From Escherichia coli (GTDB lineage Bacteria > Pseudomonadota > Gammaproteobacteria > Enterobacterales > Enterobacteriaceae): DNA of 64,000 nt. Positions 31,901 to 34,900 of this stretch are shown in pieces. The stretch lies in NCBI RefSeq assembly GCF_016026235.1, contig NZ_CP065613.1, one strand, 5' to 3'. Position numbers: made by a program. Within the stretch, counting starts at the first letter, position 1, and each line of letters starts with the position of its first letter.

Positions 31901-34900
31901 TCTTCAGTATGAAAACATTACCCGATACACACGTACGGGAGGCATCGCGCTGCCCGTCTCCCGTCACCATCTGGCAGACTCTGCTCTCCCGACTGCTGGA
32001 CCAGCATTACGGCCTTACACTGAATGACACACCGTTTGCCGATGAACGTGTGATTGAGCAGCATATTGAGGCAGGCATTTCACTGTGTGATGCGGTGAAT
32101 TTTCTCGTGGAAAAATACGCGCTGGTGCGTACCGACCAGCCGGGATTCAGCACCTGTCCCCGCTCTCAGTTAATAAACAGTATTGATATCCTCCGGGCTC
32201 GCCGGGCGACCGGCCTGATGGCCCGCGACAATTACAGAACGGTAAATAACATTACCCTGGGTAAGCATCCGGAGAAACGATGAAACTTTCCCTGATGCTG
32301 GAAGCCAGCAGCATTAACGTGCGGACGCTGAACATGGGGCGCATTGTCGTTGACGTCGATGGTGTTAATCTCGCTGAACTGATTAACGTGGTCTGCGACA
32401 ATGGTCACTCCCTTCGTGTTGTTGATGAATCTGACCGGGTCTCAACAGACTGCACGCCACCATTTGCTGCCCTGACCGGCATACGCTGCAGTACCACGCA
32501 TATCACTGCAAAGGACAACGCCTGGCTGTACTCGCTGTCACACCAGACCAGTGACTTCGGTGAATCAGAATGGATTCATTTCACAGGTAGCGAATATCTG
32601 TTACGTACCGATGCATGGTCGTACCCGGTTCTGCGGCTTAAACGCCTGGGCCTGTCAAGAACGTTCCGTCGTCTGGTCGTCACTCTCACCCGGCGTTATG
32701 GCGTCAGTCTCATTCATCTGGACGCCGGCGCAGAATGTCTGCCGGGTTTACCCACTTTCGACTGGTAATCAGGACAAAAGACACTGGATGAAATTATTAA
32801 CCACAGAAACGGCGCTGGATATTCTGATTGCGTGGCTGCAGGACAATATCGACTGCGAATCGGGGATTATCTTTGACAACGATGAGGATAAAATGGATTC
32901 AGCAGCACTGTTGCCCTGTATTGAGCAGGCCCGGCAGGATGTCCGTACCCTGCGTCATCTGCACCAGAACCGGTGAATCTCACTCATCATACTTCATTCC
33001 ACTGACGCCAGCCTGAACAGGGCTGGCGTTTTCATTTATCTGCAAAAAGGAATATCGATTATGTCTGATATCACAGCCTCCCGTCCGGAAGTGGTCAACG
33101 GGCATACGGAAGTTATCTGCTCAACCAGTATCCACCACATTCTGGCTGTACGAAAAAGTACACTGCTGCAAATCGACACACTTATCCGGCAACTGGCTGA
33201 AATCTCAGTTCTGACGGAAAGCATTGGAGGTAAAACCACCCGGGACTGGGCCATGAAACAGAATTTTCGCTGCGGCTGCTGGCTCATGGAGAAACCTGAA
33301 ACGGCAATGAAAGCCATCACCCGCAACCTTGACCGTGAAATCTGGCGTGACCTGATGCAACGTTCCAGGATGCTTTCCTTAATGGATGCGCAGGCCCGTG
33401 ATACATGGTACCGGTCACTGGAGTACGATAATTTTCCGGAAATCAGCGAAGCGAACATTCTGAGCACATTTAAACAACTGCACCAGAATAAGGATGAGGT
33501 GTTTGAGCGGGGAGTGATCAACGTCTTCAGGGGACTGAGCTGGAATTATAAAACCAACTCTCCCTGTAAATTTGGAAGTAAAATCATTATCAACAATCTG
33601 GTGAGATGGGACCGGTGGAGATTTCATCTTATCACCGGACAACAGACTGACCGACTCGCCGATCTGGAAAGAATGCTACATCTGTTCAGCGACAAACCGA
33701 TTCCCGACAACCGGGAAAACATCACTATTCGTCTGGATGGTCACATCCAGTCCGTTCAGGGTAAAGAGCGCTATGAAGACGAAATGTTCATCATTAAATA
33801 CTTTAAGAAGGGATCTGCACACATCACTTTCAAAAGGCTGGAACTGATTGACAGAATTAACGATATAATAGCTAGGCACTTTCCTTCTGAGCTCTCAGCC
33901 TGATCCCGAATGCGATTTCCTTTCGATATCAAAAGGGATTGCGGGTATAATTGAGGGTACATTTTTAATCAAACCAAATAAATTAGATTAATATCAATAT
34001 GATAAAAGAAATTTTCGATTCCGAGTCCGGCACCACTAATTCTTAAGAACCCGCCCACAAGGCGGTTTTTTGCTTTTGGATCTGACAATAACCTTCACGA
34101 AAAAAATTAGCTTATAAAGTCTGGGGGAATTACTCTCGCCACGTTAACGAGAGTAATTTTATTGATATTAATCTCCTGATACTTTACCCCCGTCCAAACT
34201 CCAGCCGCTGCACATTCACCATCCCAGGCTTCTCAGCAGCACTGACATCAATTTGTGTCACCCGCAGCGCATATTTTTCATCCAGTGCGTTTAACCATTT
34301 CAGCAGGTCATTAAACACCACAGGTTCTATCCAGACCTGAATATTCTCCCCACGCTCGGCTATCCGCCTGATGACCACCGAGTGCGCGGAAGCACTGTCA
34401 CTGATGACCCGCGATACCTGCGCAGGAGTTGTTGTGGCAGATTTTCGCGCTGCAATAATATCCGGCGCGGCGTTCTTCAGTCGGGTGTTCATTGCCACCA
34501 GCTGCTGCAACATCGTCTCCTGTTGTTCTATCTGTTCGCTCAACGGCTGCCAGATGAGGACGTAATATCCGACGCTAAACAGGAACACCACCGCTGCCAG
34601 TAACATGCCCTTTTCACGCGGAGAACGCCCCGCCAGGTGTTGTGCCAGCCAGTGTTCGCCACGGCTTAACTGGCGTTCACGCCATTGCTGAAAATAGTGA
34701 ATAAATTTATCGCGTAACATGTTATTTCCTCCGCAACGTTACGCCGCCGGAAACCGCATCACCCTCTTTCTGTAACGCGTCCTGTTGCACAACATAATCG
34801 GTTGCCAGTGCACTACGCAGTTTGTCGAAACTGGCAAAGTTTGCTGCCCGCAACTGGAGGTGAAGCGTCTGGCGTTTTTGATCAAAGGTGAAACCACGCA

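Follow-up and report, generated by a model that had tools for sequence, protein, structure and literature searches.

In Escherichia coli K-12, whose CbtA/CbeA toxin–antitoxin (TA) pair is the one that has been studied, the cbtA gene of the CP4-44 island is directly followed, with a short overlap of the two genes, by yeeW (b2006), which codes for a stub of 64 amino acids (aa). An AntiFam entry, ANF00264 ('spurious, frameshifted phage protein'), has been placed directly 3' of DUF5983 beside cbtA/cbeA in a preprint (10.64898/2026.06.09.728211), the authors of which suggested that this open reading frame (ORF) is genuine and that a programmed frameshift may join it to DUF5983, and gene families over-represented in plasmid leading regions, beside the transfer origin (oriT), have been tabulated by Samuel et al. 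2024 (PMC11541004, Supplementary Table). Here, three consecutive ORFs at the edge of an integrated island in a 64,000-nucleotide stretch of E. coli DNA (contig NZ_CP065613.1 of assembly GCF_016026235.1; hereafter the window) were compared with these systems. The three ORFs, which belong to the families DUF5983, DUF957 and DUF4942, are a conserved backbone of CP4-44/CP4-57-type integrative islands and form the end of a co-oriented gene block that lies nearest to the attachment (att) site. Whether this end also belongs to an establishment and anti-defence module resembling the leading region of plasmids is a proposal, drawn by analogy and with an inferred mechanism, whose chances we consider evenly balanced. 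The features concerned are as follows.

31451..31819, + strand: cbeA, antitoxin gene of the YeeU family (type IV; Pfam CbeA_antitoxin, E 4.5e-53), which opens the TA operon holding the first two ORFs.
31909..32283, + strand: cbtA, cytoskeleton-binding toxin gene of the YeeV family (Pfam CbtA_toxin, E 6.4e-62), the TGA stop of which overlaps the next ATG.
32280..32768, + strand: DUF5983 gene of the full-length YeeW/Aec77 type, 162 aa (Pfam DUF5983_N 9.4e-29, DUF5983 2.6e-19).
32788..32976, + strand: DUF957 gene, 62 aa, an independent cistron 19 nt past the DUF5983 stop; the exact protein is in NCBI.
33004..33040, + strand: GC-rich hairpin with T-tract, resembling an intrinsic terminator (terminator scan), ~20 nt before the ribosome-binding site of DUF4942.
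33061..33903, + strand: DUF4942 gene, 280 aa (Pfam DUF4942, E 1.9e-65, residues 87-275).
33904..34013, no strand assigned: AT-rich island arm from DUF4942 to the att core (attR P' arm), the last ~75 bp of which are kept in the attP junction of CP057032.1.
34014..34035, + strand: att remnant and island/core junction, made up of the 3'-terminal 22 nt of tRNA-Phe (pheV), in which 1 nt is deleted (alignment with K-12 pheV-yghD).

The distribution of the module was found to be very wide. The 2-kb module matches 5322 of the 5426 complete E. coli genomes, at a median of 3 places per genome, and in 3351 genomes at least 80% of its length is covered at one of them. A second E. coli pheV island exhibits the same order, DUF905-DUF932-antirestriction-RadC-DUF987-CbeA-CbtA-DUF5983-DUF957-DUF4942-yghD, and the order from RadC through DUF987, CbeA, CbtA, DUF5983 and DUF957 to DUF4942 recurs in many Enterobacterales genera. 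In an orthologue set of 80 loci, one genome per species across Enterobacterales, together with one E. coli locus, DUF4942 was located 3' of the cbeA/cbtA pair in 75 of the 81 loci, with cbtA before cbeA in a few Yersinia. Three architectures were observed in this set, namely cbtA-DUF4942 (39 loci), cbtA-DUF5983-DUF4942 (16 loci) and cbtA-DUF5983-DUF957-DUF4942 (20 loci, in two of which extra DNA before DUF4942 pushes cbtA outside the 2.5-kb scan window), and DUF957 was present only together with DUF5983; DUF4942 is thus the constant member, and DUF5983 and DUF957 are nested optional additions. Among the Yersinia loci, those of Yersinia rohdei, Y. similis and Y. proxima carry a cbtA homologue preceding the cbeA homologue, directly 5' of DUF4942, and those of Y. 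similis and Y. proxima hold a DUF5983 fragment upstream of cbtA rather than downstream.

The three ORFs lie on the + strand, with the positions and the product lengths (162, 62 and 280 aa) that an earlier sequence-only reading of the window had given, and they are real, constrained protein-coding genes under purifying selection. The median ratios of nonsynonymous to synonymous substitution rates (dN/dS), calculated by the Nei-Gojobori method (NG86) on intact orthologues of 53–100% amino-acid identity, were 0.155 for DUF5983, 0.177 for the 62-aa DUF957 ORF and 0.094 for DUF4942, against control medians of 0.185 for cbtA, 0.177 for cbeA and 0.194 for radC, and all these ratios are approximate because dS is near saturation (~1.5). 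Nucleotide diversity at codon position 3 is about twice that at positions 1 and 2 in each of the three genes. The 62-aa product, with 12 D+E against 6 K+R residues and an isoelectric point (pI) of 4.50, is therefore acidic, in line with the earlier description; this acidity is kept in 20 homologues (pI 4.05–4.71), the acidic motif IIFDNDED.TDS is conserved, and 20 of the 22 homologues detected are intact and near-full-length. The ANF00264 ORF of the preprint is, judged by its position, very probably the DUF957 ORF, so that a real gene has probably been catalogued as spurious. A programmed frameshift between DUF5983 and DUF957 was considered and rejected, as both the gap between the cistrons (11–37 nt) and the frame offset (11, 6 and 1 loci) vary between loci. 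In the ORF listing, the DUF957 frame appears as a longer ORF of 141 aa with a GTG start (32551-32976), the 62-aa version beginning at the ATG at 32788. This frame, which is +1 relative to DUF5983, is open for ~79 to ~100 codons upstream of that ATG (32476-32787), overlapping the 3' end of DUF5983, and the open stretch is taken as chance because the offset between the two frames is not conserved at other loci.

The sequence-only reading had found no motif that could be confidently assigned in any of the three products, which holds as far as a biochemical function is concerned; at the level of families, however, all three could be assigned. The first product, which had been called YeeW-like, indeed matches both Pfam models of the family (PF25638 and PF19419) at 99.3 and 69.8 bits against a cut-off of 27, and the 280-aa product matches DUF4942 at 220.6 bits against a cut-off of 25, over model positions 1-189 of 190. 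The 62-aa product had no match in the 2025 copy of Pfam, even at E up to 1, where the model PF06117 may have been withdrawn; it is 88% identical to WP_000839291.1, which bears the RefSeq/PGAP name 'DUF957 domain-containing protein'. All three are mobile-element families of unknown function and none is a structural or housekeeping family, an assignment of which kind had been named in advance as refuting. NCBI already holds the three exact proteins, consecutive in E. coli and named DUF5983, DUF957 and DUF4942, on ~28 contigs, and the genes are therefore already known as catalogued, functionally uncharacterised mobile-element families and are not new. NCBIfam returned nothing for any of the three proteins, the ArdA and KlcA Pfam models matched none of them, and an Rfam scan of 27000-36000 gave nothing at E up to 0.1; PHROGs placed them in families of unknown function, with phrog_6263, labelled 'DNA methyltransferase', matching DUF4942. 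The best complete-genome match to 32200-34200 is only 92.3% identical, yet the exact protein trio occurs on the ~28 E. coli contigs, which are drafts; such a combination of alleles is uncommon, and the copies of the module look mosaic relative to one another.

Differences from K-12 were observed for all three genes. The YeeW stub of CP4-44 lies directly 3' of cbtA with the same overlap and shows 58% identity over residues 5-59, but comprises the N-terminal domain only, whereas the protein of the window is intact, with 162 aa and two domains. In CP4-44 (5941-6258 of the locus extracted), the stub is followed by a C-terminal remnant of DUF957 and there is no DUF4942, whereas the window holds both downstream genes; in K-12 CP4-57, none of the three genes was found. 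The K-12 protein YpjJ, considered as a DUF957 protein, proved to be a DUF987 protein. Neither of the two K-12 islands examined has an intact copy, which may explain why the three genes have gone unstudied.

The junction between cbtA and DUF5983 reads ..ACGATGAAA.., in which the TGA of cbtA overlaps the ATG of DUF5983, so that the ATGA junction reported earlier is visible in the sequence. This 4-nt (-4) overlap was found in 28 of 32 loci and is kept even where protein identity falls to ~55–65%, which indicates that DUF5983 is translationally coupled to cbtA and its dosage tied to that of the toxin. Between DUF957 and DUF4942, the hairpin at 33004-33040 comprises an 11-bp stem with 7 GC pairs, followed by the T-tract, and an equivalent hairpin with a T-run is located ~20–40 nt 5' of DUF4942 in 72 of 81 distinct upstream regions, compared with 24 of 415 shuffles. 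Forty different 5' arms were observed, all still fully paired, and the stem is therefore maintained by compensatory change. Since the hairpin is present whatever gene precedes DUF4942, DUF4942 is predicted to be transcriptionally insulated from the TA operon. The predicted arrangement is thus a cbeA-cbtA-DUF5983-DUF957 transcript, on which DUF5983 would be translated through its ATGA coupling to cbtA and DUF957 would be a separate downstream cistron, and which would close at the conserved hairpin terminator; DUF4942, which has a ribosome-binding site of its own, would be insulated from it. The 5' arm of the hairpin adjoins a CATAA(T/G) box in many loci, and a promoter starting within the stem is therefore conceivable; DUF4942 could be transcribed by terminator read-through or from this box.

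An exhaustive profile-free search for DUF4942 homologues yielded 1983 cluster representatives, which are mostly stand-alone proteins of 255–300 aa, with a few of 467–468 aa. The latter carry, C-terminal to DUF4942, a methyltransferase domain (Pfam MTS) dependent on S-adenosylmethionine (SAM), with LEPSAGxG and NPPF motifs. In these amino-methyltransferases from phages and metagenomes (P0187, P0217 and P0218; PHROG 6263), the DUF4942 part aligns with the protein of the window over ~260 residues at 35–40% identity, but is followed by a SAM-dependent domain of ~190 aa, before which the protein of the window ends. Phage homologues are annotated as methylases in their records, and among viral predicted structures the top match is a 531-aa 'Type I restriction enzyme'. 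The AlphaFold2 model of DUF4942 (pLDDT 89) has no solved structural relative and no Rossmann-fold match; searches of PDB sequences gave chance matches only with DUF4942 (E at least 0.37) and nothing with the methyltransferase half of P0187. The 280-aa protein has no methyltransferase Pfam match, no SAM-binding motif I and no catalytic motif IV, (D/N/S)PP(Y/F/W). From this architecture, we infer that DUF4942 is a non-catalytic N-terminal module of a methyltransferase family, serving in recognition of a substrate or partner.

Relatives of the two larger proteins were found near the oriT of plasmids, in the leading region, which is the part transferred first. DUF4942 homologues (YgfB/YdiA, ~35% identity) occur on 4686 of 72,556 plasmids, and 3961 (85%) of these plasmids are conjugative. 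On an IncI plasmid, the homologue ygfB follows psiB-psiA-ardA and is one gene (yggA) away from nikA/nikB, and in IncI1 plasmids oriT is located just upstream of nikA. On a pOXA-48-type IncL plasmid, the homologue is co-oriented with a JAB/RadC-like gene, an antirestriction gene and ssb, with mobA and a relaxase gene further on, and a 105-kb replicon exhibits the order MqsRA-ArdA-DUF4942, among metagenome contexts of distant homologues of which most are too short to inform. For DUF5983, proteins of 188 aa consisting of the C-terminal domain only (41% identity) were detected, without cbtA, at the oriT-proximal end of the leading regions of MOBP plasmids in Enterobacter, Citrobacter and Leclercia, such as pOP-I (NZ_KY126370.1, 6713-7279) and ~100 others. 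In the table of Samuel et al. (PMC11541004), DUF4942 appears as family 24 (2171 members, median ORF position 1 from oriT) and family 76 (551 members, position 6); DUF5983 (Aec77) as family 72 (618 members, position 2); DUF905 as family 2 (4709 members, position 12); DUF945/YubP-YafZ as family 3 (4661 members, position 1); and KlcA as family 9 (3645 members, position 16). The p values corrected for false discovery rate are below 1e-99 for families 24, 76 and 72 (0 for family 24), and all six families lie on the strand compatible with transcription from the transferred strand (T-strand). DUF4942 and DUF5983 are thus leading-region families, enriched next to oriT and on a strand compatible with the T-strand, a link that already stands in the literature as a table entry with no functional follow-up; several genes of the right arm of the island are therefore related to the plasmid leading region.

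The plasmid and island settings were also compared feature by feature. YgfB/YdiA and the protein of the window share the same Pfam domain over its full length, with 282–286 aa against 280, and in both settings the gene is the terminal one of a co-oriented block of antirestriction, RadC/JAB, SSB/Psi (single-stranded DNA-binding protein and Psi) or TA genes; a hairpin is found upstream in pOXA-48 too. In contrast, the plasmid copies lie beside oriT and relaxase genes, whereas the copy of the window lies beside the attR of an integrated island and follows the CbeA/CbtA pair rather than ardA/psiB. ArdA and KlcA/ArdB share the neighbourhood and the co-orientation, and DUF957 is, like DNA-mimic anti-restriction proteins, small and strongly acidic; this likeness is one of context alone, as neither sequence or profile similarity nor, for DUF4942 and DUF5983, structural similarity was detected.

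Following the reading that we consider evenly balanced, the co-oriented block DUF905-DUF932-antirestriction (KlcA-like)-RadC-DUF987-CbeA-CbtA-DUF5983-DUF957-DUF4942 would act in establishment and anti-defence when the element enters a new host. Within it, DUF4942, as a stand-alone non-catalytic module, would probably not methylate but bind nucleic acid or a protein partner, and might act, for example, by masking sites or by engaging components of host restriction-modification; DUF5983, with DUF957 as a small acidic partner dependent on it, would be an optional add-on with its dosage tied to the CbtA toxin. Several observations weigh against this proposal. PADLOC gave no match for the three proteins at E up to 0.1, and the literature on DUF5983, DUF957 and DUF4942 consists of annotation tables, with no functional experiment found. 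Comparison of the island with the oriT regions of IncI, IncL and MOBP plasmids gave chance-level matches only and no oriT-like sequence, and with respect to these three oriT types the island can therefore be said to have a 'leading region' by analogy only. The basic pI of DUF4942 in the window (8.8) is not conserved, the family median being 6.5, and a simple argument for DNA binding is the weaker for it. DUF5983 and DUF957 are missing from about half of the loci, and the studied CbtA/CbeA pair of K-12 is accompanied by a truncated yeeW only, so neither gene is essential to the module. A bolder version appears doubtful, in which DUF4942 would be a methyltransferase-less derivative of the DNA-recognition module of a phage/plasmid amino-methyltransferase family, now serving conjugative plasmids (YgfB/YdiA, position 1 from oriT) and CP4-type islands as a widespread, stand-alone 'first-in' establishment or anti-restriction factor, and the right arm of the island would be a true leading region; DUF4942 would then mask sites, or hijack or block host restriction-modification complexes, conjugation would mobilise the islands, starting at an origin close to attR/attP, and DUF5983 and the acidic DUF957 would be further anti-defence add-ons.

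At the island end, collinearity with K-12 sets in at 34014 and runs through the 3'-terminal 22 nt of pheV, less one G, into the pheV-yghD spacer, which bears out the claim that the three ORFs are the final island genes before the att remnant; with the junction at 34014, the distance from the end of DUF4942 to the att core is 110 bp. The repeat of the pheV 3' end at 34014-34035 reads GG in place of the GGG of K-12, and no intact tRNA was found in the window. The record CP057032.1 (62 kb), typed as a 'non-mobilizable plasmid', proved to be a circularised CP4-type island, in which the pheV 3' end has an intact GGG. Its segment 9789-12184 holds DUF4942, then attP with the tRNA-Phe 3' end (junction 10632-11010), then a tyrosine integrase gene, and the ~75 bp before its att core match 33940-34013 of the window. 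This element family can therefore exist as a circle with DUF4942 beside attP.

Among the other explanations weighed, scarcely any credence can be given to the idea that any of the ORFs, the 62-aa one above all, is spurious or a pseudogene in decay. The lack of a Pfam match for that ORF, the reported AntiFam flag on an ORF 3' of DUF5983 (10.64898/2026.06.09.728211) and the presence of remnants only in K-12 are consistent with it, but they are opposed by the 20 near-full-length, intact homologues out of 22, by the dN/dS of 0.18, by clear codon periodicity together with the conserved acidic motif, and, as regards a conserved programmed frameshift, by the variable frame offset. It also seems very improbable that the three genes are variable accessory cargo gathered at an island-terminus hotspot, as the sequence-only reading had proposed from their location at the island edge. 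The variable presence of DUF5983 and DUF957 between cbtA and DUF4942 would fit such cargo, but the order of the genes does not change from genus to genus, the module has matches in 98% of E. coli genomes, with several sites in each, purifying selection is strong and the plasmid homologues keep a fixed position. The comparison of gene neighbourhoods, in which further E. coli islands and many genera of Enterobacterales gave the same order, contradicts this cargo proposal, and the outcome of the check is mainly corrective, the three genes being backbone rather than cargo.

A further possibility, unlikely but carrying appreciable weight, is that DUF5983 (with DUF957) is an extra component of the CbtA/CbeA system, such as a second antitoxin, a chaperone or a modulator kept in a fixed ratio to the toxin, with DUF4942 as an unrelated neighbour. 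The ATGA overlap in 28 of 32 loci, the position of DUF5983 in islands, always directly 3' of cbtA, the naming of CbtA_toxin/DUF5983 as a recurrent toxin-partner pair in a TA survey (PMC10790755) and the occurrence of DUF957 only with DUF5983 in the set examined argue for such a role; on the other hand, co-occurrence with the toxin is not obligate, as cbtA directly precedes DUF4942 without DUF5983 in 39 of the 81 loci, K-12 has CbtA/CbeA with the 64-aa YeeW stub only, and the plasmid C-domain proteins lie beside oriT without cbtA. This explanation is compatible with the establishment/anti-defence reading and does not exclude it. For DUF4942 itself, a role as an accessory DNA-binding factor in att recombination (directionality or architectural), which would explain its place nearest attR/attP, is improbable. 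The 110-bp distance to the att core, the circularised island, in which ~370 bp spanning attP separate DUF4942 from the integrase gene, and the kinship with a non-catalytic methyltransferase module presumably contacting nucleic acid point in that direction, but thousands of plasmid homologues adjoin oriT without an adjacent att site (the only recombinase gene of the IncL plasmid is ~8 kb off), the protein, with 280 aa and a new fold, is unlike any known excisionase or recombination directionality factor, and it has no helix-turn-helix or other Pfam DNA-binding domain. There is likewise very little chance that DUF4942 is itself a DNA methyltransferase protecting the incoming element; this notion draws on legacy database names ('restriction methylase', 'methyltransferase domain') and on the fused homologues, which do bear a methyltransferase domain, but the name 'restriction methylase' is unjustified for stand-alone DUF4942 because that domain, both motifs and the Pfam match are absent.

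The three genes are ordinary in the sense that they are found in nearly every E. coli genome and on ~6% of sequenced plasmids. If the establishment/anti-defence reading is true, DUF4942 would be one of the commonest establishment factors still uncharacterised in enterobacterial mobile elements, resistance plasmids of the pOXA-48 type and IncI among them, and the three genes are reasonable, though not urgent, targets for conjugation and anti-defence work.

Two further observations concern the sequence around and beyond the island end. A perfect 15-nt inverted repeat was detected, with the arms AGATTAATATCAATA at 33985-33999 and TATTGATATTAATCT at 34160-34174; the former is in the terminal arm of the island and the latter in the core spacer, just ahead of the yghD stop, so that the att remnant lies between them. 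K-12 also has the core-spacer arm, and the repeat could be an arm site of the integrase or of IHF, or chance in AT-rich DNA. Past the island, the core genes gspM/yghD, a gspL of 392 aa, gspK and gspJ occupy 34184-37476 on the minus strand, and since the K-12 gspL (yghE) has only 286 aa against 392 here, this strain seems to keep an intact type II secretion system (T2SS-beta) cluster.

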